Positions 1,585 through 35,969 of a DNA stretch of 52,898 nt are shown here, in pieces. Positions within the stretch are counted from its first letter, which is position 1, and each line of letters begins with the position of its first letter. A model generated the notes under the pieces. The model was not told the DNA's origin and ran no database searches. It was given only the letters and a program-made list of their open reading frames with translations. Origin of the DNA: an uncultured Eubacteriales bacterium (GTDB lineage Bacteria > Bacillota_I > Bacilli_A > RF39 > UBA660); contig ONQM01000015.1 in assembly GCA_900319955.1 (NCBI GenBank), positions 1 to 52,898 of the forward strand, in the 5' to 3' direction. A program made the translations under genes and the position numbers.

Positions 1585-2852
1585 TATCTTCTTCTGTAGC
1601 TCCTACGATATTGTCTAGTAAGTAAGCTTCCTTCTAGTTGTTTATAAGTTTCTAGTGCAACTCCAACAACAATTAATAATCCTGTACCACCAATTGATAC
1701 ACTAGTTGGAAGAGATGAAACACTAGAGAATATTATTGGAATACCTGCAAGTACTGATAAGAAGAATGCACCAATTACAGTTATTCTTGAAAGTATCTTG
1801 CTTAGGTAATTTTCTGTGTCTTTACCCGGTCTAATACCTGGTATATATCCACCATTTTCTTGTAAATTCTTTGCAAATTCATCAGGTCTCATTTGTATAA
1901 ATGTATAGAAATATGAGAACAAGAATATTAATACTATATATATAATAAATCCTGTTACAGATGAATAATTCAAATACTTTTGTACAAATAGTGTTAATCC
2001 TTCTTTATTTGCAACTGCTGCAATTATACTTGGAATACTCATAACACTTGATGCAAAAATTACTGGTATAACATTTGCACTATTAACTTTAATAGGCATA
2101 TATGAAGTGTTCTTATCATAACTAGATGCTGACTTATTAGCATACTGAATAGGTAATCTTCTTTCAGATTCTTCAATAAAGACAACTCCTATTAAAATTG
2201 CTAAATAAAGAATAACAAATAGTATAAACTTAACAACTCCAAATGTTATAGCTTGTGCAGTAGATCCTGTTACTAAACTTGTAAATGCTGTAATAAACAT
2301 TTCAGGAAGTGTTGCAATAATACCAGCCATAATTATAAGACTAATACCATTACCAATTCCTTTTTCAGTAATCTGATCACCAAGCCATAATAAGAATGCT
2401 GTACCTGCAGTTAAAATTGTTGCAATGTATAAGTATTCAATTGGATTACCATTTTTTCCATAAAATGCAAATGCAAATGCATAACCTTCAATAAATGCGA
2501 AGGCAATACCCATATAACGAGTAATTCTGTTTAGCTTCTGTCTTCCAGTATACCCTTGCTTAGCAAGTTCTGAGAAATATGGAACAATATCCATTTCTAG
2601 AAGCTGCATTATTATGGATGCTGTTATGTATGGCATAACACCTAAAGCAAATATTGAGAAGTTCTTAAATGCTCCACCACCCATAGAGTTTAAAAGCTCT
2701 AAGAACCCTAAGTTACTATTTACATTATTTGTTCCAGGAACCCTTATGGAACATCCTACAATAAATATTGCTAGACAAACAAGTGTGAAATAAATTCTAT
2801 GTCTAATATCTTTATTAGCAGGTGTAAATAATTGCTTCATGGTTTTATTCAT
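1584..2852 (-). CDS. secY: preprotein translocase subunit SecY
   Basis: 422-aa polytopic membrane ORF immediately after rplO. Confidence 0.95.
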   Translation of the reverse strand: MNKTMKQLFTPANKDIRHRIYFTLVCLAIFIVGCSIRVPGTNNVNSNLGFLELLNSMGGGAFKNFSIFALGVMPYITASIIMQLLEMDIVPYFSELAKQGYTGRQKLNRITRYMGIAFAFIEGYAFAFAFYGKNGNPIEYLYIATILTAGTAFLLWLGDQITEKGIGNGISLIIMAGIIATLPEMFITAFTSLVTGSTAQAITFGVVKFILFVILYLAILIGVVFIEESERRLPIQYANKSASSYDKNTSYMPIKVNSANVIPVIFASSVMSIPSIIAAVANKEGLTLFVQKYLNYSSVTGFIIYIVLIFLFSYFYTFIQMRPDEFAKNLQENGGYIPGIRPGKDTENYLSKILSRITVIGAFFLSVLAGIPIIFSSVSSLPTSVSIGGTGLLIVVGVALETYKQLEGSLLTRQYRRSYRRR

Positions 2853-2853
2853 A

Positions 2854-3297
2854 CTAGATCACCTCAGCTTTACTACCTGACTTTTCAATCTTTTCTAGTG
2901 CAGACTTAGAAAATTTATTAGCCTGTACTGTTAACTTCTTTTCTAAATTTCCGTTTCCTAATACTTTAATACCAGATAACTCTTTCTTAACAAGTCCAGA
3001 TTCCTTTAAAAGTGCTGGTGTTACAACTGTACCATCTTTAAATCTATTTAAATCTTCAACGTTAACTGTTGCATAAACAGTCTTAAACATTGCATTTTTA
3101 AATCCTCTTTTAGGAATGCGGCGATAAAGTGGTAATTGTCCACCTTCAAATACTGGATTAACATGTCCGCCACTTCTAGACTTTTGACCTTTTTCACCAC
3201 GACCACAAGTCTTTCCAAGACCTGATCCAGGTCCACGTCCTACACGTTTCTTAGAATGAGTTGCTCCGATATTTTTTTCTAATTCATTTAACTTCAT
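2854..3297 (-). CDS. rplO: 50S ribosomal protein L15
   Basis: 147 aa; N-terminus [27 protein letters not shown] is typical of L15. Confidence 0.95.
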
Positions 3298-14558: not shown

Positions 14559-16268
14559 TTAATCTTTTTTATATAAATCAAGAACATAATTATAACTATC
14601 TAAATTGATCTTTTTAAGTAAAGAAAGTGAAGTATCTAAACTCTTTTTGTAATTTCCCTTATTAAATAAATTAGTTGCATCTTCAATAATTAATTCATTA
14701 TTGCCTAAATCACTAAATCTATTTAAATAAATAATTAACTTTTCAGAAAAACCAGCATCCTTAATAATACTACTTGTTGTATTGAAAAGTTTTAGTACAA
14801 GATCACGTGCTGTATCAACTCTAGTATTTAAAGTAGATATAGTAATAGGTTTATTAGAAAGTTCTTTTATAACCTCACTAATAGCTTCATTAGCTTCATT
14901 AAGTTCAACAAAATACTTATCACTAATTACTGGAAGCTTATAATTATGCATTAAGTTCTTGCTACTTTTTAAGAATTTTTCAATCTCTTCAAGCTGCTCA
15001 CGTGCTCTTTGCTCATCATCATACATAGTACCTAAACTCTTTAAACTATCATCAAGCTTTAATGTAACATTCTTAAGTTCTTCTGATAATTTTTCAAGTT
15101 CTAAATGCATCTCTGAATATGGTGCAGCTTTATTTTCAAGTTTACCTTTAAGCTTATTATAATTATCATTAATAGTTGTCATTTCTTTATTTTCGCTTCT
15201 AATTAATGCAACATCATCATCTTTTAAATTATAAGTATTTTTAATATTATCAAGAGATGTAAAAACACTTCCTATTGCATTATTTGTCTTAGAAAGCTTT
15301 AAAGCAAAATCTCTATTAGCATCTTCAAAGGCAGTCCTATTAAGTCTTTCCTTTTCAAAATCCATAAAAGTAGAATCAAGATATTTAAGCATTGTATCAA
15401 CTTCAAGTTTACAATCATTCATATTTAAAACCTTAATTCTATCATAAACATTTTCTGTATTTTTTTTAATTTCTTTTAAATTATAAGGAATATTTAAATA
15501 ATCAAGAACATATCCTTCTTTTATCATCTGATTATACTGGTCTTCAACATCTTTTGCTTTACCAGGAAGAATCTGCCTGCACATAAGAATTAAATCTGGT
15601 ACATCTTTAATTACAACACTCATTTCATCAATCATACTAGTAAGTCCTCTAACAATATGCATAGCATCATTATAGTTGTTGGACTCCATAACTTTCTCAA
15701 ATTCCATAAAACGTTTTTCAATACTTTCAAACTTCAAACTAATAGCATCAATTGTTTCCTCATAAAGCTTTTTATGTTTATTAAAATCACTAGTTAACTT
15801 TCTATATCTTGTCTTTAACTTTGTTATCATTGATCTATACTTTTCATCACTAGATGTTATTTCAGTTATTTCTTTTAAAAGCGTATTAGCATATTCTCTC
15901 ACTCTATATATCTCAAACTCTGTTTTATTAATTTTCATATCACAGGTTTCATAATCTTTTTTATCATAAAAAGTATCAAGCTCAATTAACATATCATCTA
16001 TATGAGGCAGCATCTCATTTTTTATTTTATTTAATCTATCATTAAACTCTTCACACTTCTTTTGAAGATCCTCATTCTTTGATAAATCTTCAACTTTAGA
16101 AAGCTCTAAAGAAATAGGAATACTTGAAACAATATTTTTTTGATACTCTAAATCATCTAAAGTATTTTTATAATACTTATTTTTCTTAGATTTAAGAACT
16201 CTTACAATAATTATTATGAACAAAACTATAAATACCACTGCACCAATAATAATATAAGTCATTTTCAT
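14559..16268 (-). CDS. ezrA: septation ring formation regulator EzrA-like
   Basis: About 569 aa with an N-terminal TM helix followed by long coiled-coil repeats. The start is taken at the ATG at 16268 after GAGGTG. Confidence 0.7.
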   Translation of the reverse strand: MKMTYIIIGAVVFIVLFIIIIVRVLKSKKNKYYKNTLDDLEYQKNIVSSIPISLELSKVEDLSKNEDLQKKCEEFNDRLNKIKNEMLPHIDDMLIELDTFYDKKDYETCDMKINKTEFEIYRVREYANTLLKEITEITSSDEKYRSMITKLKTRYRKLTSDFNKHKKLYEETIDAISLKFESIEKRFMEFEKVMESNNYNDAMHIVRGLTSMIDEMSVVIKDVPDLILMCRQILPGKAKDVEDQYNQMIKEGYVLDYLNIPYNLKEIKKNTENVYDRIKVLNMNDCKLEVDTMLKYLDSTFMDFEKERLNRTAFEDANRDFALKLSKTNNAIGSVFTSLDNIKNTYNLKDDDVALIRSENKEMTTINDNYNKLKGKLENKAAPYSEMHLELEKLSEELKNVTLKLDDSLKSLGTMYDDEQRAREQLEEIEKFLKSSKNLMHNYKLPVISDKYFVELNEANEAISEVIKELSNKPITISTLNTRVDTARDLVLKLFNTTSSIIKDAGFSEKLIIYLNRFSDLGNNELIIEDATNLFNKGNYKKSLDTSLSLLKKINLDSYNYVLDLYKKD

Positions 16269-16311
16269 TAGTTTCACCTCTATTATCATAGAAATATCAT
16301 ATCACATAAAT

Positions 16312-16339
16312 TTGACAAAATAAATATTTAGCGTATAAT
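16312..16339 (+). promoter_or_regulatory. sigmaA-type promoter of rpsD with leader of about 160 nt
   Basis: TTGACA (16312-16317), 16 nt, then TATAAT (16334-16339). The long untranslated leader may be the S4 autoregulatory site. Confidence 0.6.
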
Positions 16340-16504
16340 AAAATTTGCATATTTCGTTTAGACAGCGTTTTTAGAATATTTTAATGTGTTTTACAAATAA
16401 CTCTAGTAACTCTTCCGCTGTAAGAGTGAAAGACAAAGTAAGACTCCCTAAGATATGACTAAAAAAGTATAAAGGAAAATGTAATATTATGAAAGGAGAA
16501 AGTT

Positions 16505-17107
16505 ATGGCAAGATATACAGGACCTAGTTACAAAAAAGCAAGACATGTTGGTTTCTCAATTTCTGAAACAGGAAAAGAATTAGCTCGTCGTCCTTATGGA
16601 CCTGGTGATCATGGAAATGGTCGTCATGGTAAGCTTTCTGATTATGGAGTACAATTAAAAGAAAAACAAAAAGTTAAATTCATGTATGGTTTAAATGAAA
16701 AGCAATTTAGAAAAACATTTGATGATGCTGCTAAAATGCCTGGTATACATGGTGAAAACTTCTTAAAGCTTTTAGAGTCTCGTCTAGATAACTTAGTTTA
16801 TCGTATGGGATTTGCAACTACAAGACGTGGTGCAAGACAACTAGTTAACCATGGACATATTACTGTTGATGGTAAGAAAGTTGATATTCCATCATATAGA
16901 GTTAAACCTGGACAAGTAATCGCAATAAAAGAAAACTCTAAAGATCATAAAGCTGTTAAAGAAGCTCTAGAAAAAGTAACTAAGAGAGTAGAATTTGTAA
17001 ATTATGATGATTCTAAAATGGCTGGTACTTATGTAAGATATCCAGAAAGAACAGAATTAAATGCTGATATTGATGAATCACTAATCGTTGAATTCTATAA
17101 CAAATAA
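16505..17107 (+). CDS. rpsD: 30S ribosomal protein S4
   Basis: 200 aa starting [17 protein letters not shown].. Confidence 0.95.
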
Positions 17108-17126
17108 AAATAAGACAAGCAAAGTC

Positions 17127-17660
17127 TTATTTTTTTATATCAAACTCTTCTAAATAACAATTATCTATTTTAAAATCATCTGGTTTTGCAATAGTTCCTG
17201 TTAAAAAGTTATGAAAGCATCTTACAACAGCACTATGAGATACAATTAAAACATTTTTATCTTCATAATTCTCTTTTAAATAATTAATAAAATCTTCTAC
17301 TCTTTTATAAACATCGTTAATAGGCTCTATATGATTATCATTAGAGTTTAATTTTGTATCCCAATATTTATCCATAGCATAAAGGTCTTTAGATTCACCC
17401 TCTAAATAACCTAAATTTCTTTCTCTTAACCTATTATCTTTTAAAATTAGGCATCTATCACCTACTATTATAAAAGCAGTTTGTAAAGCTCTAATTAAAG
17501 GGGAAGAAAAACATACATCTATTTCTTTATTCTTTAACTTCTCCCTTAACTCTTTAGCTTCCTCTATTCCCTTTTTATTAAGAACAGTATCTATAGTACC
17601 CTGCATATGTCCTTTAGAGTTCTCTAGTGTCTGTCCATGTCTTACTAAATAAATATGCAT
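17127..17660 (-). CDS. histidine phosphatase family protein (phosphoglycerate-mutase-like)
   Basis: 177 aa with the N-terminal RHG motif (LVRHGQTLEN) and HSAVVR. Confidence 0.85.
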   Translation of the reverse strand: MHIYLVRHGQTLENSKGHMQGTIDTVLNKKGIEEAKELREKLKNKEIDVCFSSPLIRALQTAFIIVGDRCLILKDNRLRERNLGYLEGESKDLYAMDKYWDTKLNSNDNHIEPINDVYKRVEDFINYLKENYEDKNVLIVSHSAVVRCFHNFLTGTIAKPDDFKIDNCYLEEFDIKK

Positions 17661-18865
17661 TACTTTAAATTTCCTTTATAAGTTATAAACATATTATTAT
17701 ATTTTTTCTCAGTATCATTACTGTTATAACCACTAACAACATATAACTCATTATACTTATTTATATCAGTAAAGTAGTTGTTGCTATATTTGTTATAAAT
17801 GTTTTTATCCTCAAGTTTCAAATCTAAACTATACTTATTAATTAAACCTCTATAATTATATGCAAATTCTTTTTTAGTAGATTTCTTCTTATTTAAAACA
17901 GCCTCATGTCCAACAACATAAATATCTTTACCATCAATAATTAAATTATTGAATCTTTCTAAGCCTTTCTTAGTATCCTTGTATGTAACTTCATCTTTCT
18001 TTTCAAGATTTTCATCATACTTAACAATTAATCCATCTATATCATGATCATACTCATCATCTTCGTTTAGCTTTTTAGCACCAACAACATATAAGTATCC
18101 ATCTTTATATTCTATACTTGAAAAACCAATAGTATCAGTTTTAGCATAACTAACTGCTTTCACATACTCACCATCTAAAGTATATTTTGCAACAACACCA
18201 TAACGAGTTGCATCTTTACCTGCTAAATATAAATATTTTCCATGTTTAACAATGTCATTAAATAGTCCTGACTTATTGCCACCTAAATGCTTCTTCCAAA
18301 GAATCTTACCATTCTTATCATATTTTATAAGCATTCCGCCACCTGTATTTTCATTACCTAATACATCATTTGGATAAATACTTTGTCCGACAACAATATA
18401 ACCATCATCGGCAACAATTAAATTAGTAAACTTAGAAACACCTAAATCTTGATAAGTCTTCTTAAAAAGCAATTTACCATCTTTACTATACTTTGCAATT
18501 AAAGCACTTCTATATTTATTTTTATTCTCATCTTTAGTGTTCTCAACAGATCCAACTGCAACTAAATTATTACCATCCTCTTTAACATAAAAGAAAGTAC
18601 TATTATATTTAGAATCTAATACATAAGAATTAACCTTTCTTAAATTACTATTGTATTTATAAATAACTCCTTCTTCTTTTTTATCTTTATTCTTATTTGT
18701 ACTACCACAAGCATAAATAGTATCCTTATCATAAAAGAAAGAATTTAAACTTTCAAAATTAAGATTTTTGCTATCTGTCTTCAAAAATAGAAAGATATCA
18801 ACCCCTAAAACTATAACACATAAAACTATTACAACTATTAATATTCTTTTTAATTTCTTACTCAT
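17660..18865 (-). CDS. membrane-anchored repeat (beta-propeller-like) protein, unknown function
   Basis: N-terminal TM helix followed by repeats of about 45 aa of the form ..VGS..ALIAKYSKDGKLLFKK.., ..MLIKYDKNGKILWKK.., ..GVVAKYTLDGEYV.., ..GLIVKYDENLE.. The start is taken at the ATG at 18865 after AAGGTGA. Confidence 0.6.
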   Translation of the reverse strand: MSKKLKRILIVVIVLCVIVLGVDIFLFLKTDSKNLNFESLNSFFYDKDTIYACGSTNKNKDKKEEGVIYKYNSNLRKVNSYVLDSKYNSTFFYVKEDGNNLVAVGSVENTKDENKNKYRSALIAKYSKDGKLLFKKTYQDLGVSKFTNLIVADDGYIVVGQSIYPNDVLGNENTGGGMLIKYDKNGKILWKKHLGGNKSGLFNDIVKHGKYLYLAGKDATRYGVVAKYTLDGEYVKAVSYAKTDTIGFSSIEYKDGYLYVVGAKKLNEDDEYDHDIDGLIVKYDENLEKKDEVTYKDTKKGLERFNNLIIDGKDIYVVGHEAVLNKKKSTKKEFAYNYRGLINKYSLDLKLEDKNIYNKYSNNYFTDINKYNELYVVSGYNSNDTEKKYNNMFITYKGNLK

Positions 18866-18877
18866 TACTATCACCTT

Positions 18878-20101
18878 CTAAAAACTAATTATAAAATACT
18901 TTTTCTTGCCACGTCTAATTACAGTATATTTATTATCAATAGATTTATCTTTTGAAACTAAATAATCTAAATCTGTTACCTTATCCCCATTAACACTAAT
19001 AGCACCATTACCAATAAACTCTCTAGCTTCTCTCTTACTAGAACATATCTTGTTGTCAACGAGTGTTTCAACAAGATTTTTATTTTCTCCTTTAAAAATA
19101 GGCATACCTTTAAATACACTTTCAATATCTTTAGAATTAAAATCTTTTATATTACCACTAAATAATGCTTCAGAAAGATTAAGTGCATGATTATATTCTT
19201 CTTTTCCATGAAGATCAGTAATAATTTCTTTTGCAAGAGCTTTTTGTGCTATATGAAGTTCAGGTTTTTCATTATGCTTCTTCATAATATCAATTATTTG
19301 ATCTGGTGTTAAAAATGTATAAACTTTTAAGTATTCTTCTACCTTAGTATCACTAGCATTAATTAAGAACTGATAAAGTTCGTAACTAGAAGTCTTATTC
19401 TTATCAAGCCAAATAGCATTACCTTCACTCTTACCAAACTTCTTACCATTTTCATCAAGAATTAATGGCATAGTAAATGCATAAGCATCTTTTCCTTCAA
19501 CTTTCTTAATTAAATCAATACCAGTTGTTATATTGCCCCACTGATCAGAACCTTCTGCCTGAAGAACACAATTTTTTTCTTTAAATAAATGTAAAAAATC
19601 ATATCCTTGCATTAAAGTATAAGTAAACTCTGCAAAAGTAATGCCAGTTTCTAATCTTCTTCTAATAATGTCCTTATCAAGCATATAATTAACATTAATA
19701 TACTTACCAGTATCTCTTAAAAAATCTATTAAAGTAATATTCTTCATCCAATCATAATTATTAACAATCTCACAATTACCATCAAAAATATTAGTAACTT
19801 GTTTTTTAATAGCATCAACATTATGTAAAACAGCGTCTTTTGATATAATTTCACGTTCTGCAGTAGGACGAGGATCCCCAATTAAACCAGTAGCTCCTCC
19901 AATTAAAAGAATTGGATGATTTCCCATTTTAGCAAGTCTTTTTGCAGTAACTAGTGATGAATAATGTCCTATATGAAGCGAATCTGCAGTAGGATCTGTT
20001 CCCCAGTAGAAAGTAAACCCACCTTTATTAATTAAACTTTCAACATCTCCAGCTTCATCTTTTATTAAGCCTCTCCATTTTAACTCTTCGTAATTTGTCA
20101 T
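18878..20101 (-). CDS. tyrS: tyrosine--tRNA ligase
   Basis: 407 aa with HIGH (LHIGHY), KMSKS-like KFGKS, and a C-terminal S4 domain. Confidence 0.95.
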   Translation of the reverse strand: MTNYEELKWRGLIKDEAGDVESLINKGGFTFYWGTDPTADSLHIGHYSSLVTAKRLAKMGNHPILLIGGATGLIGDPRPTAEREIISKDAVLHNVDAIKKQVTNIFDGNCEIVNNYDWMKNITLIDFLRDTGKYINVNYMLDKDIIRRRLETGITFAEFTYTLMQGYDFLHLFKEKNCVLQAEGSDQWGNITTGIDLIKKVEGKDAYAFTMPLILDENGKKFGKSEGNAIWLDKNKTSSYELYQFLINASDTKVEEYLKVYTFLTPDQIIDIMKKHNEKPELHIAQKALAKEIITDLHGKEEYNHALNLSEALFSGNIKDFNSKDIESVFKGMPIFKGENKNLVETLVDNKICSSKREAREFIGNGAISVNGDKVTDLDYLVSKDKSIDNKYTVIRRGKKKYFIISF

Positions 20102-20284
20102 ATTAAAACCTCCTCAAAATAAAAGAAAGCCTAATTATAAGGACGAAAAACGCGGTACCACCTTACTTCATAGACTCTCTATGCACTCATACTTTTAACG
20201 CAAGTATACGTTTTTTCTCATGGCTTGTAAGACCAATCAATGAAAAATATATCTTATTATATCAGAAAGCAAAAATTAAATCTA
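20102..20284 (-). promoter_or_regulatory. T-box leader (tyrosine specifier likely)
   Basis: The minus strand contains the conserved T-box sequence AGGTGGTACCGCG (plus-strand 20151-20162). An upstream UAC-containing loop (CGTATACTTGCG) is present. The element lies directly 5' of tyrS. Confidence 0.7.
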
Positions 20285-20689
20285 CTATTTATCTTCTAAT
20301 TTCTTAAGAACTTTTTTAGTAGCTTTAATAGCTTCTTTTCTAACACTTTCAGCAGCTTCTTCAACATAAGGAGTTGCTTTATCTCTTGCATAAGCTGCAA
20401 GCTCTTCTGCCTTTTCTTTAATATCTTCTGCCTTTTCTTTAGCTATCTTTAAAGCTTTTTCCTTGTCTAAATCTTTAAGTTCTTCTTGTAAAGAGTTAAG
20501 CCTTTCAAGCATATTATCTTTAACTTCTTCTTTATCAATATTCTTAATTCTTTTAGCAAGTTCCTTAAAGCTATCCTTTACGTCTTCTCTCATCTCAGAT
20601 CCTTTCTTAGGTGCAAGAAGTACTCCAATTCCAGCTCCTATTCCAAGTCCTAATAAAAACTTACCAAATCCTTTATTTTCTCTACTCAT
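20285..20689 (-). CDS. YtxH-like general stress protein
   Basis: MSRENKGFGKFLLGLGIGAGIGVLLAPKKGSEMRED.., followed by a Lys/Glu-rich helix. The start is taken at the internal ATG at 20689. Confidence 0.7.
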   Translation of the reverse strand: MSRENKGFGKFLLGLGIGAGIGVLLAPKKGSEMREDVKDSFKELAKRIKNIDKEEVKDNMLERLNSLQEELKDLDKEKALKIAKEKAEDIKEKAEELAAYARDKATPYVEEAAESVRKEAIKATKKVLKKLEDK

Positions 20690-20972
20690 AATCTTCCTCC
20701 TCACTTTCTTCTTCTTTTTTTCTTTTACCTCCAAATATCTTTTTAATAGCACCACTTAGTCCATAAAGAACTGAGTCACTGATATTTGAAAGGCCAAGGC
20801 TTACTTTGTCAACTGTCTTAAATATTCCATCAAGACTGTCAACTTTCTCTTCAATACTATCTGCTATCTTGTTAGCCTTATCAACAAGTATAACAGCTTT
20901 CACTGCAAGTACTATTAGTACAATTAATAATATGATGCCACACATAGTAAGTATTACTGATAAATCTACCAT
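20682..20972 (-). CDS. DUF948-like small membrane protein
   Basis: 96 aa with an N-terminal TM helix and a helical region. It pairs with the ytxH-like gene, as is common in Firmicutes. Confidence 0.55.
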   Translation of the reverse strand: MVDLSVILTMCGIILLIVLIVLAVKAVILVDKANKIADSIEEKVDSLDGIFKTVDKVSLGLSNISDSVLYGLSGAIKKIFGGKRKKEEESEEEDYE

Positions 20973-20984
20973 CTAATCACCTTC

Positions 20985-22061
20985 CTATTTTTCATTATCG
21001 TACATTGAGTCGATTAAGTCAAATAAATTATCATCATCACTTGACACTTTCTTAATGTTTTTAACATCATTTGACTTATCTTCCTTCTTAGGTGTTCCTT
21101 CTTCATCATCACTATTATTCTCTTTTTTTACTTTTTCATACTCTTCATCTTTTTTAACTCTACTTTTAGTCTTATTAGCATCTATATAATCACTATTATA
21201 TTCAAGACCTAAATCATCATAATACTCTTCTGCATCACCCATAGTTACCTTATTAACAGAAGGTTTATCAGTATTTGTTAAATCAATGAAGTCTTCATCT
21301 ATTGGAGTTTCTTTTTCTTCCTCTTCTTCTTCCCTATCAAGTCCAAGAACTTTCTTTCTAACTTCATCTATATCAGGTTTTTCTACAGGTATTGCTGTTG
21401 TAAGTCTAACTTCTCTTTTTACCTCTTCTTCCTTAGGTTCAGGATCATCAATTATTCCATATACTGGACTAATATTTGGACTAGGTTTAAATCCATGTTT
21501 TTCTTTAGTCTTAGGATATGTTCCATATTCTGATGATGTAAACTTCTTAACATATTCTTCTCTAGAATTAGTTTTATATGGAAGATTTTCATTATAACCT
21601 CCATAAAGCTTAGGCTTCTCTTCTTTTTTAGGCTCTTCCTTTACTTCTTCAGAAACTATTCTATTAACTGCTTCTCTTCTTTCTTCCTTTTCATCACTAT
21701 CAAGAAGAGGAATATCTGCATCAATCTTTGTTCTTTCTTCTTTAGTATCTGTAAAGAAAGAATCATCTTCAGGGAATATAAAATCACTTTTCTTTTCTTT
21801 TACAGGCTCTTCATTCTTTTCTCTTACATCAATTATCTTTTTAGCAACCTGCTCTTCTTCCTCTTCTTCATCATCAAAAGAATCATCGTAATTAGTTACT
21901 TTGACATCCTTAATTCTAGTTTCTTCCTTAATCCTATCAATATTACTTCTAAATTTACTTTTTTCATGTTCCTTTTCTTTCTTTTCCTTTACAGGCTTAT
22001 CAGGAACATCAACATATTCTTCTTCAAATAGTGCATCCTTTAACTTATCAAATAATTTCAT
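20985..22061 (-). CDS. acidic, Glu/Lys/Asp-rich low-complexity protein
   Basis: About 358 aa with an amphipathic N-terminus, MKLFDKLKDALFEEE. No recognisable catalytic domain. Confidence 0.5.
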   Translation of the reverse strand: MKLFDKLKDALFEEEYVDVPDKPVKEKKEKEHEKSKFRSNIDRIKEETRIKDVKVTNYDDSFDDEEEEEEQVAKKIIDVREKNEEPVKEKKSDFIFPEDDSFFTDTKEERTKIDADIPLLDSDEKEERREAVNRIVSEEVKEEPKKEEKPKLYGGYNENLPYKTNSREEYVKKFTSSEYGTYPKTKEKHGFKPSPNISPVYGIIDDPEPKEEEVKREVRLTTAIPVEKPDIDEVRKKVLGLDREEEEEEKETPIDEDFIDLTNTDKPSVNKVTMGDAEEYYDDLGLEYNSDYIDANKTKSRVKKDEEYEKVKKENNSDDEEGTPKKEDKSNDVKNIKKVSSDDDNLFDLIDSMYDNEK

Positions 22062-22072
22062 CAAAAACACCT

Positions 22073-22762
22073 CTAATCGATAAATGAATCTATGTCTATC
22101 ATATCTTCATCACTACTACTTTTTTCAACTCTTGATATAACGTTTTCATTTTCTCTAACATATTCCAAATAACTTCCGCTATTTTTCTTTTTAGATGTAA
22201 ATATATTAAACTCCTCTTCTTTACCACTTGCTGTATTTGAACTATCAAGTTTTAAAATATTATCATTGTATTTTACTGAAGACATAACTTCACACATATT
22301 TATTATAGTATCAGGAATAGCATTCCTTCTACTATATACTTCTATTTTAACATAATTATAGGCTCCATGTAAAAAATATTTTTCATTATCTTTAATTATT
22401 TCTATATAACCATTATGATTTTTACCTTTTATATTCTTATAATAATAATTATTTTTATACTTTTTATAAGAAAGATGAGTCTTATTTATATGAGAAACTG
22501 TATCAACATAAACATAATAAACATTGTTATTCTTATCTCTAAAAACAATATTATTATCATCTTTATAATCAAGTTTTAACCCCTTAGGTATATAAAGAGA
22601 ATATCCTTGGAAATTGCTCCTTTTAACTTTTCTTTCTCCATTAAAATAACTATCTATTACACTATCATAATTATTAACATTAACTTTTCTAATACTACAA
22701 CCTGTTATTAAAAGTGGAATTAATAAAACAAGTATTATCTTTTTTTTCACATGCATCACCAT
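22073..22762 (-). CDS. lipoprotein, unknown function
   Basis: Signal peptide with lipobox LLITGCS. Confidence 0.65.
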   Translation of the reverse strand: MVMHVKKKIILVLLIPLLITGCSIRKVNVNNYDSVIDSYFNGERKVKRSNFQGYSLYIPKGLKLDYKDDNNIVFRDKNNNVYYVYVDTVSHINKTHLSYKKYKNNYYYKNIKGKNHNGYIEIIKDNEKYFLHGAYNYVKIEVYSRRNAIPDTIINMCEVMSSVKYNDNILKLDSSNTASGKEEEFNIFTSKKKNSGSYLEYVRENENVISRVEKSSSDEDMIDIDSFID

Positions 22763-22781
22763 CTATATTACATTATACCAT

Positions 22782-23405
22782 TTATTTAATAGCCTTTAAA
22801 GAATAAATTTTATTTCCATTTTCTGAAAATTTATCTTCATACTCAGTTGTTATTAGATCATCACTATCTTTATGTAAATCAAAAGTCACATCATAAAGAG
22901 TATACTTATGTGCTGAAAGCATTTCAATTGAATATATGAAAAGTTCTTCATTATCTGTACGAATCTCTATTTCTTTCTTATCCTTAAATATTTTTTCATA
23001 CTTATCTAAAAATATAGGACTAGTAAGACGTCTACCTGCTTGTCTTTTCTTTGGCCATGGATCAGAAAAATTTAAAAATAATTTATCTATATCTTTATCA
23101 AAATATTCATCAATCTCTAAAGCATTACCTCTTATAACCTTTAAGTTAAGAACTCCCTCTGGTATCCATTTAAGAGCTCTCGCTAAAATATTATCCTGCT
23201 TTTCAATACCAATATAATTAATATTAGTATTACTAATAGCATTATTATAAATAAACTTCCCTCTTCCCATACCAATCTCAACATATATAGGATTATCATT
23301 ACCAAAAAGCCTATCCATATGTCCTTTGTAGTCTTTTATATTTCTAACAACATAAGAAGATCCATTAATTATTTCTTCTTTATTCTTTAAATTTCTAAGT
23401 CTCAT
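22782..23405 (-). CDS. trmB: tRNA (guanine-N7)-methyltransferase
   Basis: 207 aa containing ..PIYVEIGMGRGKFI.. and ..LNFSDPWPKKRQ.. Confidence 0.9.
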   Translation of the reverse strand: MRLRNLKNKEEIINGSSYVVRNIKDYKGHMDRLFGNDNPIYVEIGMGRGKFIYNNAISNTNINYIGIEKQDNILARALKWIPEGVLNLKVIRGNALEIDEYFDKDIDKLFLNFSDPWPKKRQAGRRLTSPIFLDKYEKIFKDKKEIEIRTDNEELFIYSIEMLSAHKYTLYDVTFDLHKDSDDLITTEYEDKFSENGNKIYSLKAIK

Positions 23406-23470
23406 AATATCACCAAAATAAGTATAACATATTTTTATTAGTTAAACATATATTTTTAAGGGAGGATTAT

Positions 23471-23710
23471 ATGTTTGGAGATAATTTTTTTAAAAAAGTT
23501 GAAAATAAAACAAAAGTTAATAAAGAAACAATTCTAGGTCTAGCTAAAAAACTTCAAAACTCAAATATGAAAGATGAAAAGTCAATAAGAGAAGTAATAC
23601 ATGAGATATCAGGACTTACTGGTAAAGATGTAACAAAAGAAAAAGAAGATAAAATAGTAAATAGTATTCTAAAAGATAAGGTACCTAAAAATATAGATAA
23701 AATGTTTTAA
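23471..23710 (+). CDS. SpoVIF-like small sporulation protein
   Basis: 79 aa. The pattern ..IREVIHEISGLTGKDVTKEKEDKIVNSIL..KVPKNIDKMF resembles stage VI sporulation protein F. Confidence 0.5.
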   Translation: MFGDNFFKKVENKTKVNKETILGLAKKLQNSNMKDEKSIREVIHEISGLTGKDVTKEKEDKIVNSILKDKVPKNIDKMF

Positions 23711-23730
23711 ACAGACTAAACTCTGTTTTT

Positions 23731-24012
23731 TTAAAACAAAGAATCTAAAAAATCATTTATTTTATCATAATTATTATCAGAAATTTCTATAAGCAAATTA
23801 ATTTTATTAATTAAAAAATTTAATTTTTCATTCTTAGAAAACTTAGCATTGGCAGCTTTTATATAACTAAAATAAAAATTATCATTATAACAACACTTAT
23901 CTAATACATTCTCATCTAAATCATATGTAACAAAATTAATATGCTTATTTTTTAATTCACTAATAACCCTACTATAAGAATTAGAGCTAAACCCAAGTTC
24001 ATTATCTTTCAT
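23731..24012 (-). CDS. MutS-domain-I-like protein, C-terminal part
   Basis: 93 aa. The segment ELGFSSNSYSRVISELKNKHINFVTYD fits the MutS mismatch-binding domain pattern (GvP..a...yi.kLv..G.kVai.eQ). Its ATG overlaps the TGA of the upstream 41-aa ORF (ATGA). Confidence 0.4.
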   Translation of the reverse strand: MKDNELGFSSNSYSRVISELKNKHINFVTYDLDENVLDKCCYNDNFYFSYIKAANAKFSKNEKLNFLINKINLLIEISDNNYDKINDFLDSLF

Positions 24013-24134
24013 TTTATATTCAAATAAGTACCATCACCATTATAAGAATAATAAAATATACCACTTTTAACAATAACAAGGCTATCCTCATTATCTTCTT
24101 TATATTTATTATAAAATTTTTCTATTTTATTCAT
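24009..24134 (-). CDS. MutS-domain-I-like protein, N-terminal part (41 aa)
   Basis: My translation reads MNKIEKFYNKYKEDNEDSLVIVKSGIFYYSYNGDGTYLNIK. It fits the MutS N-terminal pattern (Y...K...pd.llf.r.GdFYe.f..DA). It starts 2 nt after the RT stop. Confidence 0.4.
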   Translation of the reverse strand: MNKIEKFYNKYKEDNEDSLVIVKSGIFYYSYNGDGTYLNIK

Positions 24135-24136
24135 AT

Positions 24137-25258
24137 TCATATCTCTAACTTATAAAACTTATTTTTTTCTATAAAAGAATAACAGTCGCACATATTAAAA
24201 TACCCTTGATAACTAGAAAGACTAGTATTATATTTAGCTTTATTATTATGTCTAAAATATCTAAGTCTTTTAGATATTCTTTTCTTTGTCTTACTATTCA
24301 TTATAATAACAAGTTTGTTATTCTTATTTAATAAAAATCTATATCCTAAAAAACTAATACCATTTTTAATAGAATAAATATGAGTCTTTCTCATATTTAA
24401 TTCAAGTTTTTCTTTAGCTAGAAATTCCTTTATTTTTTTATAACAATATTTAAGATACTCTTCATCTTCATGAAGTAAAATAAGATCATCCATATATCTA
24501 ATATAATATTTAATATGTAGTTTTTCTTTTATAAAATGATCTAAGTCATTTAAGTAATAAACCGCTATTATTTGACTAGTCATATTGCCAATTGGAATAC
24601 CTTTATTGAGATTATAATAAGGTATTTCTTTTAATTCCTTTATTTTTTCATTAATATGGGGATTAGAAGACTTCTTTAATCTATCAATTTCTTTATTTAT
24701 TTCATCTTTTATTCTAACATTAGTCTCAAGCCTATTAGTAGTTCCTAGTATTTCTTCTAAAATATTAAGAACATCTTCATCATCAATAAGATTCTTTAAT
24801 TTACTCATTACAATTTCATGATCTATATTATAAAAATATTTTTTTACATCTAACTGTAAAATATAAAAATTAGGATTATTAACTTTAATCTTATTTATAT
24901 ACTTCTTTAAATATTTAATACCAAAGCTAGTACCTTTACCTCTTCTAGTAGCAACATTAGTATCAATAAGTTTAGGTTCAATAAGAGGTAATAAAACTTC
25001 TTCACTAATTAAATGATTAATAATTTTATCAGTTAAACATTCAGACATAATTAATCTATATTTCTTCTCTCTATAAAGAAAAATATTATATTTCTGATGT
25101 TTAAAATTTTTTGATTTTAATATTTCATATATACTCATTACATTTGTAATATAAAAAGATTCAAAATTTACAATTTTACTTTTATACCTAGTAGTTTTTT
25201 TTACATCATTATAAACTCTTTCAATCTTATCAAGATTAAGTATTTTTTGATACAACAT
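24137..25258 (-). CDS. diversity-generating retroelement reverse transcriptase
   Basis: 373 aa. The RT motifs are LDVKKYFYNIDH, IPIGNMTSQ (the [I/L]GxxxSQ hallmark of DGR RTs) and YIRYMDDLILL (YxDD). It has no maturase or endonuclease tail. Confidence 0.88.
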   Translation of the reverse strand: MLYQKILNLDKIERVYNDVKKTTRYKSKIVNFESFYITNVMSIYEILKSKNFKHQKYNIFLYREKKYRLIMSECLTDKIINHLISEEVLLPLIEPKLIDTNVATRRGKGTSFGIKYLKKYINKIKVNNPNFYILQLDVKKYFYNIDHEIVMSKLKNLIDDEDVLNILEEILGTTNRLETNVRIKDEINKEIDRLKKSSNPHINEKIKELKEIPYYNLNKGIPIGNMTSQIIAVYYLNDLDHFIKEKLHIKYYIRYMDDLILLHEDEEYLKYCYKKIKEFLAKEKLELNMRKTHIYSIKNGISFLGYRFLLNKNNKLVIIMNSKTKKRISKRLRYFRHNNKAKYNTSLSSYQGYFNMCDCYSFIEKNKFYKLEI

Positions 25259-25610
25259 TCTTATTGCTCCTTATAACACCATATAAAAGTTTTTTTATAA
25301 TAATTAAAAGTCTAGATATACATTCAAGTTGGTGTTTACTTATATATCTTTTCTTATAACAAATTCTAATATACATATCATACATAGAAAGTTTGACATG
25401 AAAATCTTTTAAATACTTTTCACGTATTCTAGGGCTTCCAGAATTAACATTAAAATAAAATATACATTCAATAAGTTCATATTGTGTCTTTTCAATATTT
25501 TGTTTTAATATAACCTCTTTCTTAGGTAAATTAGGAAGTAAATTATTAAAATAATTAATAAGTTTATTAGTACTGTCAAGTAAATTAAATTTGAACTTTC
25601 CTTCTTCCAT
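25236..25610 (-). CDS. avd: Avd-like accessory variability determinant (four-helix-bundle family)
   Basis: 124-aa basic all-helical ORF. It overlaps the RT start by 23 nt and lies directly 3' of the TR-like block. Size, position and charge fit Avd. The call rests on sequence and context only. Confidence 0.65.
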   Translation of the reverse strand: MEEGKFKFNLLDSTNKLINYFNNLLPNLPKKEVILKQNIEKTQYELIECIFYFNVNSGSPRIREKYLKDFHVKLSMYDMYIRICYKKRYISKHQLECISRLLIIIKKLLYGVIRSNKNVVSKNT

Positions 25611-25920
25611 ATATAAATCTCCATAAAAACCAAAAGATATAGTTTATAGTATTTAAAGATAAAAACCTCTAAATACATCTATATCATATATTCTGACAAT
25701 TAAGTCAAGGAATGAACTTATTTCCAATCTGATTAGGAATCATCTTAAATAAGAATATGTATTAAATATAATTATTTATCCGGACCTTATCAAATCAAAA
25801 AATGAAACACATATAAGACCCACAGATTATATACTAAGTAAACTTAGTATACTACTTCTTCTGACTATCAGACATATCCAATAGTACTCAGTGACACTAG
25901 TAAATTACTAATCGTAGTAA

Positions 25921-26043
25921 GGAAGTTCCGGGCGAACCCCATTCGAGTTAGTCGCGTTATTGTCATCAAGAGCGCCGCCGCCGTTGACGTTGAACACGTT
26001 CGCATTCCAGGTAGAGTTGCCGAAGTTGACATAACCGCCAATC
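25921..26043 (-). repeat. DGR template repeat (TR) candidate
   Basis: A 120-nt block with 66/120 G+C (55%) in flanks of about 25% G+C. The minus strand reads in frame as FWIGGYVNFGNSTWNANVFNVNGGGALDDNNATNSNGVRPE, with 10 AAY codons in 34. The 3' end AATGGGGTTCGCCCGGAA matches the target gene at 26261-26278. Confidence 0.75.
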
Positions 26044-26148
26044 CAAAAGGTTAAACCTGCTTTTAAGAACATCCCTATATTAATCTATATAAAAATGATT
26101 AATACCATATTTTAAATATGTTAACATAAGTTAACAACAAAAATTTGA

Positions 26149-26176
26149 CTTTTTTCGCAAAGAGTTGCGAAAAAAG
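26149..26176 (-). promoter_or_regulatory. perfect 12-bp hairpin with 4-nt loop downstream of the DGR target
   Basis: Plus strand: CTTTTTTCGCAA AGAG TTGCGAAAAAAG. It lies 15 nt 3' of the frame-B stop of the target. It has no T-tail in either orientation, so it is not a standard terminator. Confidence 0.6.
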
Positions 26177-26191
26177 GATATTAGTCTTCGT

Positions 26192-27176
26192 CTATCCTAC
26201 AGTGTAAGGATTAGAAGAAGTACCATCTCCTCCTGTTATTGCATCTGCCCTCAGATTTATGACCGGGCGAACCCCAAGTAGGTGTCATAGTCCAGTATTC
26301 TGTTCCAATATTTGCATAATTAGTAGCTCCTTTTGTATAATTTGCAGCTCCATCAAATACTCCACCGGATGCACCTGCTAAAATTACTTCATCTGAAGTC
26401 ATTAATCCAATTGGATAAGTTAAAGCTTTATTTCCTTTAGATGAAGATGAAACAGTATATAAATCATTTACTTGTCTACATTTTAAACTTGGTTCACTAA
26501 ATACTGTACGAGTATAACCATCATAATATGTAGTTAAATTACTGTATCCGTAATAAGATCCAGATCTTGATCTATCACCACAGAATCCTGCATCAGTTGA
26601 AATATATTTTGCATAATTTGTAAGATTTTGTTGATACCAATTATCAACTGCTTGTTTTATTACACTAGAATTAGTGTTTTTAGTTGCTTCATCATATGAG
26701 CTTGCACCTACTTTACCATACATATAAAATGCATTAGCATTATCTGAATAAGATGTATTAAACTGACTATTAGTACCTGTTGTACCATTAAGAACAATTC
26801 TAACAGTCTTATCACCATTAACTCTAATTACTCTCCATATTTTACCCGCAAAAGAAACATAATTATTAGATGAATTACCTCTAAAGTAATAGCTTGTTCC
26901 ATCATCATCGTCCATTGCATAAACGCCTTCCTCTGATGTTGCAGTTTTAAAGTCAGGTGTTCCTTCACTAACTTTAAATGTTAAACCAGAAAGATTATGA
27001 ATAGTAGCTCCTGCAAGATTTTTTGAAACTGTCATTTTAATACTATTATTAGTTGTAACTTCTTTTGAAAAAGTAGCATGAGAAGAAGGAAGAAGTCTAG
27101 TAACTACACTTCCTAAAACAAATGCAGAAACTGCTAAAATAATCATCTTATTTTTACTCCACTTTACACTTTTCAT
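26192..27176 (-). pseudogene. secreted DGR target protein, frame broken at the variable-repeat position
   Basis: Track ORF 26211-27176 has a SipW-type-like signal (..LLPSSHATFSKE..), a YYFRG..WRVIRV.. domain, and ends ..EYWTMTPTWGSPGHKSEGRCNNRRRWYFF*. The other frame from 26284 reads HLLGVRPVINLRADAITGGDGTSSNPYTVG* (stop at 26194-26192). That looks like the genuine C-terminus and is the frame used by the TR. Confidence 0.7.
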
Positions 27177-27210
27177 TTTATCACCATATCCTCGCTAACA
27201 TAACAATATC

Positions 27211-27227
27211 AAAAAAAAAAAAAAAAA
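27211..27227. repeat. A17 (T17 on minus strand) homopolymer tract
   Basis: Read directly from the sequence. It lies 35-51 nt upstream of the target-gene ATG (27176), between TTGCTT and TATTGT on the minus strand. Confidence 0.85.
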
Positions 27228-27357
27228 GCAATATTTTTAGGAATAAAAAGTGTAAAGTAAATAAATTAAATTTAAAAAATTATTGAAAAAATAATTTAAT
27301 TATACATGAATATTTAAAATAATTATTCATAAAATTAATTAGACAGGAGAAGATGTT

Positions 27358-28833
27358 ATGGAAAAACAAGAAATTATAAAGAATATTATTGAACGTTCTG
27401 GTGGAGATATCTACCTAGGTGTTGTAGGAGCGGTTAGAACTGGTAAATCAACATTCATAAAGAAAGTTGCAGAAAACCTAATAATACCTAACATGAACGA
27501 TGAATATGAAAAGAAAAGACTTTTAGATGAACTACCACAATCTGCTAAAGGTAAAATGATAATGACAACAGAGCCTAAATTTGTACCAAGTAAGGCTGCA
27601 AACATTAAAATAGATAACTTTAATTGTAAAGTAAGACTAATAGATTGTGTTGGCTTTGCAATTAATGGTGCAGATGGACTAACAGTAGATGGAGCACCTC
27701 GTATGGTTAAAACACCATGGTATGATGAAGAAGTACCATTTGTAGAAGCCGCTGAAATAGGAACAGAAAAAGTAATCAAAGAGCATTCAACAATAGGAAT
27801 AGTTCTAACAACAGATGGATCAATTGGAGAGTTTACAAGGGGAGACTACCTAGAAGCAGAAGAAAAAGTAATAACAGAACTAAAAGAAATAAATAAACCA
27901 TTTATAGTTGTTTTAAATACAACACATAAAGAATCTAAAGAAACAGAAAAAATAAGAAAAAGCATTGAAGAAAAATATAATGCAACAACACTTGCAATAA
28001 ACATTGAAACAATGAATAAAGAAGATATGTATACTATACTTAAAGCAGCACTCTATGAATACCCAGTAACAGAAATAAAAGTATCTATGCCAGACTGGAT
28101 TGGAATACTAGATTCACATCATGAAATAAAGAAAAAATACATGGATGAAATAAGAAAAAGTGTTATAAACGTTGATAAACTAAAAGATGTAGAAAAAATA
28201 AATAGTAACTTTGAAAAATGTCCTGAAATAGAAAAAGCATTTGTAAAAGAAATAGATCCTAAAACAGGTACAGTTACAATAGAGCTCCATGCACCTAATA
28301 ACCTATTTGATAAAACACTAAAAGAAATAATGAATATAGATGTTAAAACAAAAGCAGATTTATTAAAAGTATTCCAAGAATTTAACATAGCAAAATCGGA
28401 GTATGACAACATAAAATATGCTTTAAAGATGGTTAAAGAAACAGGATATGGAGTAGCAATACCTAAAATAAACGATATGAAAATAATAAAACCTGAAGTT
28501 GTAAAAGAAGGAGCAAGATATGGAGTTAGAATAAAGTCAGTCGCTCCAACTATTCACTTAATAAAAGTAAATGTAGAATCAACCTTTGAACCAATTATAG
28601 GTAGTGAAAAAGAATCAAAAGAATTAGCAGATAACCTTCTTAAAAACTATAAAGACAATAAAGAAAACTTATGGAATAGTGAAATATTTGGAAGAACAAT
28701 TAATAATATAGTAGAAGAAGGAGTAAAAGCTAAAATAAATATGATGCCAGATAATATAAGATATAAACTAGGTAAAACAATAACTAAAGTAGTAAATAAA
28801 GGATCAAATAACTTAATAACAATAGTTATATAG
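27358..28833 (+). CDS. spoIVA: stage IV sporulation protein A
   Basis: 491 aa with an N-terminal Walker A (GVVGAVRTGKSTFIKK) and the full-length SpoIVA pattern. Confidence 0.9.
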   Translation: MEKQEIIKNIIERSGGDIYLGVVGAVRTGKSTFIKKVAENLIIPNMNDEYEKKRLLDELPQSAKGKMIMTTEPKFVPSKAANIKIDNFNCKVRLIDCVGFAINGADGLTVDGAPRMVKTPWYDEEVPFVEAAEIGTEKVIKEHSTIGIVLTTDGSIGEFTRGDYLEAEEKVITELKEINKPFIVVLNTTHKESKETEKIRKSIEEKYNATTLAINIETMNKEDMYTILKAALYEYPVTEIKVSMPDWIGILDSHHEIKKKYMDEIRKSVINVDKLKDVEKINSNFEKCPEIEKAFVKEIDPKTGTVTIELHAPNNLFDKTLKEIMNIDVKTKADLLKVFQEFNIAKSEYDNIKYALKMVKETGYGVAIPKINDMKIIKPEVVKEGARYGVRIKSVAPTIHLIKVNVESTFEPIIGSEKESKELADNLLKNYKDNKENLWNSEIFGRTINNIVEEGVKAKINMMPDNIRYKLGKTITKVVNKGSNNLITIVI

Positions 28834-35829: not shown

Positions 35830-35877
35830 TTTGACTCACCTCTCACCATATATAATTCATTATAACATAGCAATCAT

Positions 35878-35969
35878 CATTGTGCAACTTTTAAGCTTTT
35901 TGTTGTGCAATTTTTAGCCTTTTCATTGTGCAATATTTAAACTTTTTGTTGTGCAATTTTTAAAATAAT
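35878..35969. repeat. 4 x 23-bp tandem direct repeat
   Basis: The four units are cattgtgcaacttttaagctttt, tgttgtgcaatttttagcctttt, cattgtgcaatatttaaactttt and tgttgtgcaatttttaaaataat, with core TTGTGCAA. They lie between the stop of ATPase 36002-37279 and the start of ATPase 34549-35829. Confidence 0.85.

Follow-up and report, generated by a model that had tools for sequence, protein, structure and literature searches.

One of the closest described systems to the locus analysed here is the diversity-generating retroelement (DGR) of Bordetella phage BPP-1 (mtd/TR/avd/brt). In both, an adenine-mutagenic RT is accompanied by Avd and a template repeat (TR) of ~110-130 nt rewrites the 3' end of a target gene; in both, an adenine-free GC-rich block lies at the 3' end of the VR, where TR/VR homology stops, and a small inverted repeat follows a few bases downstream of that block. 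In BPP-1, the (GC)14 block is the site to which 3' cDNA integration has been mapped, 5' cDNA integration requires at least 8 bp of TR/VR homology, and cryptic 5' integration sites come into use in targets without the 5' portion of the VR (PMC3240598). The latter behavior was seen in truncated-VR BPP-1 targets (Guo et al. 2011, PMC3240598) and in an 18-nt repair reporter (PMC12875486), which lack part of the VR and keep the IMH, and which showed that 5' cDNA integration needs TR/VR homology and is otherwise able to use cryptic sites (PMC3240598, PMC12875486). A second point of comparison is provided by the MSL-containing DGRs, designated ‘Architecture D’ by Wu et al. 2018, which include the Legionella DGR (PMC5758913). 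They have a small MutS-domain-I-like accessory gene alongside avd, for which our locus has a candidate; no HRDC gene was seen in our cassette.

The locus lies within a stretch of 52,898 nt, which we refer to as the window. On its minus strand, between 23.7 and 27.2 kb, are a target gene, a TR, bAvd, an RT and a MutS-like (MSL) gene, in that order (Table 1). The RT translation contains IGNMTSQ and YMDD, corresponding to the [I/L]GxxxSQ motif and YxDD catalytic motif by which we defined DGR-clade RTs. Of the features that mark a DGR, the window has a DGR-clade RT, Avd and an IMH-type 3' element. Another such feature, a TR/VR pair of ~100 nt with mismatches at TR adenines, is absent, as only 14 nt of VR are left. 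Since this pair is present in strains of the same species, we consider the window locus to be a DGR with a lost VR rather than a non-DGR.

The locus differs from BPP-1 in several ways. The BPP-1 element belongs to a phage, whereas this one is chromosomal, not prophage-borne, and its host is an uncultured low-GC gut or rumen Bacillota; its neighbors encode housekeeping and sporulation functions (SpoIVA, SpoVIF, a Methyltransf_4-family methyltransferase and tyrosyl-tRNA synthetase). The order target, TR, avd, RT and the additional MSL gene also set it apart, as does the deletion of the VR body in the window contig. Elsewhere in the window, at 35877-35962, we observed a 23-nt unit repeated in tandem, its three copies following the pattern TCATTGTGCAA(T/C)(T/A)TTTA(A/G)(G/C/A)C(T)TTT (family D2 of our repeat scan).

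Relatives of the RT are encoded on 110 stretches of the genome collection, from which 80 loci were kept, the best RT being 80% identical. Related RTs are found in many MAGs of uncultured Bacilli from gut and rumen, and ordinary TR/VR pairs, 95-155 nt in length, accompany nearly all of them; loci that were first scored without TR/VR proved on inspection to have normal pairs or to lie on cut contigs. In one contig of a sister species (L082, a JGI contig carrying the P0002 allele), the RT is called in three pieces of 155, 150 and 69 aa (2042-3161) and the VR has four non-adenine mismatches to its TR, which might reflect either decay of the DGR or low assembly quality.

The window DGR appears to be typical of the avd + MSL type (‘Architecture D’). 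The position and sequence of the MSL gene are kept in more than 25 related loci of the RT clade, and its orthologue in the related contig L002 is intact (138 aa). Compared to described members of this type, however, its match to MutS_I (E 0.004, 17.9 bits) is below the Pfam cut-off of 20.6, and the gene is split in the window by a 13-nt deletion between 24035 and 24034, flanked by ATG, that leaves an ATGA stop/start overlap. The split is common to the related contigs L085 to L091, whose VRs all differ, and in contig L001 the frame is kept with a nonsense codon at residue 108; the VRs diversify nonetheless. Either the MSL product is dispensable for diversification or its two pieces are still functional.

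Table 1. Features of the DGR locus, in window coordinates. A slash marks the point at which sequence is absent.
Feature	Position	Strand	Basis
DGR target ORF, 321 aa, frameshifted pseudogene	26211..27176	-	ORF list
Displaced native C-terminus GVRPVINLRADAITGGDGTSSNPYTVG*, stop 26194-26192, other frame	26192..26275	-	Three-frame translation
Deletion junction ACT/TGGGG; 98 nt (GGCGGTTATG...TCGNN) absent compared to intact alleles	26276..26277	-	MAFFT against L001, L085, L086
VR remnant, 14-nt adenine-free GC-rich block TGGGGTTCGCCCGG, identical to TR 3' end	26263..26276	-	TR scan and exact match
Inverted repeat ATCTG-AGGG-CAGAT, 6 nt downstream of the 14-mer	26243..26256	-	DNA fold
Terminator-like hairpin, 12-bp stem, past the native stop of the target	26149..26176	-	Fold -12 kcal/mol, z -4.2
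TR, 113 nt, intact, a GC-rich island; 25 adenines among the 112 nt that follow the leading T	25928..26040	-	TR/VR pairs in sister strains
Non-coding TR-avd spacer, begins AACTTCCTTACTACGATTAG	25611..25927	-	AACTTCCTTACTACGATTAG conserved in L001-L012
bAvd, 124 aa, intact	25236..25610	-	Pfam PF22296, E 2.4e-11, 44.5 bits (cut-off 40)
DGR RT, 373 aa, intact	24137..25258	-	Pfam RVT_1, E 2.2e-22
MSL gene, split into 43-aa and 93-aa ORFs	23731..24140	-	Weak MutS_I match; intact orthologue in L002

The initial annotation of this DNA had placed a frame break in the target exactly at a short TR-matching sequence, and this was borne out. Residues 1-301 of the ORF are native and comprise an N-terminal hydrophobic anchor or signal followed by a conserved domain. 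After WTMTPT the ORF leaves its native frame, so that its last 20 residues are out of frame (..GTEYWTMTPT, then WGSPGHKSEGRCNNRRRWYFF). The tail that terminates every intact allele, GVRPVINLRADAITGGDGTSSNPYTVG, is encoded in another frame: these C-terminal 27 residues have been displaced by a 98-nt (3n+2) loss.

A protein search identified at least 738 relatives, the closest being P0001 (350 aa, intact, 99% identical). The family has no match in Pfam, and a search of PDB sequences with the family profile was also empty. An AlphaFold model of the intact allele P0001 (pLDDT 82, pTM 0.82) places the strands of the VR and tail at high pLDDT; its top Foldseek matches in the PDB are nearly all C-type lectin domains (CD23, MBP-A, LOX-1), with values below significance (E 0.4-2, TM <0.35). 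The truncated protein loses the variable ligand-binding strands together with the conserved C-terminal tail. As the VR and tail make up the last six beta-strands of the intact-allele model, the truncated product is very probably non-functional.

It had been proposed from the window alone that a VR body of roughly 100 nt is missing between YWTMTP and GVRP, that the indel is of length 3n+2 and that about 34 residues would normally occupy this position. The intact alleles agree with all three proposals. In the 90%-identity cluster, 17 of the 18 members are intact and the window allele, called at 311 aa, is the only truncated one; the 14 intact members listed are 347-361 aa long, and their VRs are distinct in all but two pairs. 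P0001 continues ..EYWTMTPT GGYVAFGGSAWDALVFLVVGGGALDDYDAAYSR GVRPVINL.., and in the intact alleles 34 residues (T plus 33 VR codons) separate WTMTP from GVRPV. Of the 120 relatives with the best scores, 64 could be scored for the WTMTP-[GV]RPV spacing by our patterns, and the same value is modal, being seen in 51. At the DNA level, sequence that is present in near-identical strains is absent between 26277 and 26276, the gap measuring exactly 98 nt in the alignments to L001 and L085 and 95 nt in that to L086, the VR of which is one codon shorter. The 5' end of the deletion is the first TR-homologous base and its 3' end is 1 nt before the adenine-free 14-mer. Also lost are the ~12 nt with which the VR begins, GGCGGTTATGTC, and which are nearly invariant among alleles. 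The TR, Avd and RT are unaffected.

Three assemblies resemble the window closely. L001, the contig that encodes P0001, is 99.6% identical to it over 9.2 kb and L085 is 99.95% identical over 21 kb. L086 (ENA assembly ERZ27279859) has an intact VR; on the TR side of it, 10,085 nt match the window (26276..16192) at 100.000% identity, and upstream of the VR there are only three mismatches, all at the contig end of L086. Differences between L085 and L086 are almost confined to the VR. The identity to L086 over 10,085 nt alongside an intact VR argues that the deletion is very recent. Taken together, these alignments indicate that the window allele is a single, very recent 98-nt loss-of-function deletion in an otherwise ordinary, active DGR.

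One possibility for this observation is an artefact of assembly or consensus calling, in which heterogeneous VR reads led an assembler or polisher to join the flanks. Assembly breaks do occur at VR/TR regions: shortly beyond the target gene in L083 and L084, and inside a VR at the start of L048. L086 is identical elsewhere yet has an intact VR, and both assemblies may sample one population. Moreover, the deletion allele is represented by one contig only: an exact search of genome and metagenome contig collections with the deletion junction gave 0 matches, as did a search of metagenome contigs with the sequence downstream of the VR, and the exact truncated product is not on record elsewhere. 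We consider an artefact unlikely, however. After a collapse, the bases that do not vary (GGCGGTT..., as far as the first variable adenine) should still be present, and these have been lost. No repeat of more than 2 nt is found at the junction, and a de Bruijn or overlap join would need k-mers or reads that span ACT/TGGGG. It is the loss of ~12 nearly invariant VR bases, combined with this need for spanning reads, that makes assembly collapse improbable. In addition, there is no indel relative to L086 over ~11 kb, and relative to L085 the only one over 21 kb is a 2-nt difference in poly-T length. A softer version is possible, in which a real minority allele was preferred by the assembler because it is clonal, in contrast to heterogeneous intact VRs. 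The initial annotation had left deletion and assembly collapse as alternatives; the evidence favors a real deletion allele and leaves a reduced place for the second.

Three smaller differences from these assemblies were observed. Divergence from L001 is ~5-fold higher in the target and TR (26004-27182; 15 substitutions in 1.18 kb) than in 17083-26003 (21 in 8.9 kb), and among the target's 12 coding changes, 10 are synonymous. The higher divergence and the predominance of synonymous changes suggest that a diverged allele was imported by recombination, as opposed to decay. The second difference is in the tyrosyl-tRNA synthetase gene, where four substitutions relative to L085 fall within 15 nt (19727-19741), with one other difference in the surrounding 21 kb. 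The third is a 17-nt poly-T at 27211-27227, ~35 nt upstream of the target start and two T's longer than in L085, which could be assembly noise or a length-variable promoter/spacer tract.

When the VRs of sister strains were compared to their own TRs, the mismatches fell at TR adenines in 18 of 18 cases for L001, 14 of 14 for L085, 13 of 13 for L086 and 14 of 15 for L087. Because these VRs differ from one another and mismatch their TRs almost only at adenines, the comparison indicates that the DGR is active in the window's species. The window TR is identical to the TRs of L085, L086, L087 and L088. It differs from that of L001 at two sites, 26022 and 26004, and comparison with L002 shows both window changes to be derived. 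The VRs of L085 and L086 have the window-type bases at these two sites, which argues that rewriting went on after the TR changes. Relative to the 112-nt TR, in-frame VR length variants were also found: -3 nt in L086 (~994; P0126), -9 nt in L089 and L090, and +3 nt in a GGC run in L091 (P0128). Slippage of the RT along the TR could have given rise to such variants, and small in-frame indels of this kind have been attributed to it (PMC12875486).

What is left of the VR in the window is the block TGGGGTTCGCCCGG. The window has exactly two copies of it, both on the minus strand: one is the TR 3' end (25928-25941) and the other lies in the target (26263-26276); the number expected from shuffled sequences is 0. 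Past this block the VR goes on TCATAAAT and the TR goes on AACTTCC in all alleles read; in all relatives read, TR/VR homology starts at T/GGCGGTTATG and stops at ..CCCGG. The initial annotation had described an 18-nt match with an identical 14-nt center and four differences, all at TR adenines, and took these differences as the signature of a DGR. The identical center stands, but the demonstrable homology is 14 nt, or 15 nt with the preceding T, and fixed flank sequence explains all four differing bases. The 3' TC (26262-26261) does not belong to the TR/VR homology of any intact allele that was read (the VR has CCGGTC and the TR CCGGA[A/G]), and the 5' CT corresponds to the last two bases of the ACT flank codon that precedes the VR in intact alleles; the VR of L089 happens to end CTTGGGG. 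Judged from these alignments, the 5' CT cannot be assigned to mutagenised TR adenines. As had also been claimed, there is no TR homology upstream of the match: neither a general search for repeats nor an adenine-tolerant scan with the complete TR detected another TR-like segment or a second VR on either strand of the 52.9 kb.

The 14-nt block sits where the (GC)14 element of an IMH would be and may have a role analogous to that of (GC)14 in BPP-1 (PMC3240598). In contrast to BPP-1, three of its positions are T, and we identified no 21-bp IMH element. A search of genome contigs with the 14-mer gave random matches in high-GC genomes and was uninformative. In L089 (~5300) and L090 (~1390), which are two independent assemblies, the 14-mer of the TR carries a T>G change (GGGGGTCGCCCGG) and the VR retains GGGGTTCGCCCGG. 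If retrohoming came after this TR change, the 3' information-transfer boundary would be upstream of the changed base.

Phage DGRs have a hairpin or cruciform just downstream of the VR, with a GC-rich stem of 7-10 bp and a GRNA loop. The inverted repeat at the corresponding place in the window is predicted to fold into a 5-bp stem with a 4-nt loop, AGGG, which is not GRNA, and its energy is non-significant, being no better than that of shuffled sequences (z -0.69). A stem with another loop is predicted at the same position in L002. We regard this repeat as a weak candidate for a target-recognition hairpin. The energy of the terminator-like hairpin past the native stop was matched by 0 of 200 shuffles. 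The spacer between the TR and avd, which is presumed to belong to the DGR RNA, is identical in sequence in L086, L089 and L090. A search of 23500-27400 against Rfam gave no meaningful match.

Immediately upstream of the VR, single codons within 26279-26375 are hyper-polymorphic among alleles otherwise at least 90% identical, following the pattern DG[A/T/V/G]AN..GA[T/N]NYA[N/T]IGT[E/Y/G/Q/N/I]YWTMTP[T/C/I]. These codons are not templated by the TR. A second TR was considered and rejected, because the adenine-rich codons beside them (Asn, Lys, Thr) do not vary and the variants come with synonymous changes. The variation looks like ordinary diversifying selection or recombination beside the binding site.

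If the deletion is real, its origin may or may not involve the RT. An RT-independent event, such as illegitimate recombination, a replication error or end-joining in the GC-rich VR, is a plausible though somewhat less favored source; the allele would then persist since loss of the surface protein is neutral or advantageous. The junction shows 0 nt of microhomology if the parent VR was like those of L086, L085 and L001, and at most 2 nt if it ended CTT like that of L089, and an event of this kind does not require TR-derived sequence. The two edges lie in similar G-rich motifs, ACT/GGCGG and T/GGGG, both of the form TGG(C)GG, which could favor mispairing. Simple slippage on the shared TGG was rejected, however: it predicts CCTACTGGGG, a 99-nt in-frame loss with one T fewer than the observed CCTACTTGGGG. 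The cassette has a second small deletion, the 13 nt missing from the MSL gene, that is clearly ordinary and has been inherited by many strains, and there are decayed relatives, L092 and L093, in which stops or frameshifts interrupt the VR-like region and no DGR is visible nearby. Against these points, both ends of the 98-nt deletion are within 1 nt of functional VR boundaries, a small target in a gene of ~1 kb, and the segment lost is the one that the active RT of this lineage demonstrably rewrites.

Two other candidates were tried and rejected. Homologous recombination between VR and TR is at odds with the intact TR and 335-nt spacer. The truncated relatives P0063 and P0087 were considered as comparable events, but they are AT-rich, decayed copies; the P0063 contig has no DGR beside the gene and the P0087 contig is too short to judge.

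We give almost even weight to the possibility that the DGR itself produced the deletion in a failed or aberrant retrohoming event, and prefer this to an RT-independent origin. This reading is favored by the end-points within 1 nt of the VR boundaries in combination with the integration rules of BPP-1 and the indels in sister VRs. Two routes could be envisaged: the cDNA may have ended, or switched to another template, once the 14-mer had been copied, or the strand of the old VR may have been removed and not replaced. By either route, the end would then have been joined to the VR 5' edge with 0-2 nt of homology. The junction has no unambiguous mutagenised TR sequence, which would prove involvement of cDNA. 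None of the ~80 related RT/DGR loci has a comparable VR-body deletion, and a recurrent RT-driven process is therefore not demonstrated. Somewhat more tentatively, the end-points may mark, in vivo, where cDNA integration starts (the edge of the 14-mer) and where it finishes (the first TR-homologous base), and thus be a natural footprint of failed retrohoming.

The allele is probably no longer rewritable. At most 1 nt of 5' TR/VR homology is left, and given the 8 bp or more needed in BPP-1, the DGR should not rebuild the VR. The truncated-VR targets described previously were made in the laboratory and had VR homology left, whereas the window allele is natural and all of its 5' homology is gone, so repair by the DGR would not be expected.

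These observations bear on the annotation of such elements, as a DGR with a TR and no detectable VR may have lost its VR only in the assembled allele, and assemblers may favor a clonal deletion allele over heterogeneous intact VRs. The locus is a clean natural loss of a DGR target for which a near-isogenic strain with an intact VR provides a before-and-after comparison to the base. If the allele is confirmed and events of this class prove to be RT-dependent, it would represent a failure mode of mutagenic retrohoming in which the VR is lost precisely between the two integration boundaries, and it would be relevant to the cDNA-integration step and to the fitness cost that a DGR imposes on its host. 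If the end-points are indeed the footprint of failed retrohoming, then a DGR would at times destroy its own target, at a cost measurable in irreparable VR-less alleles.
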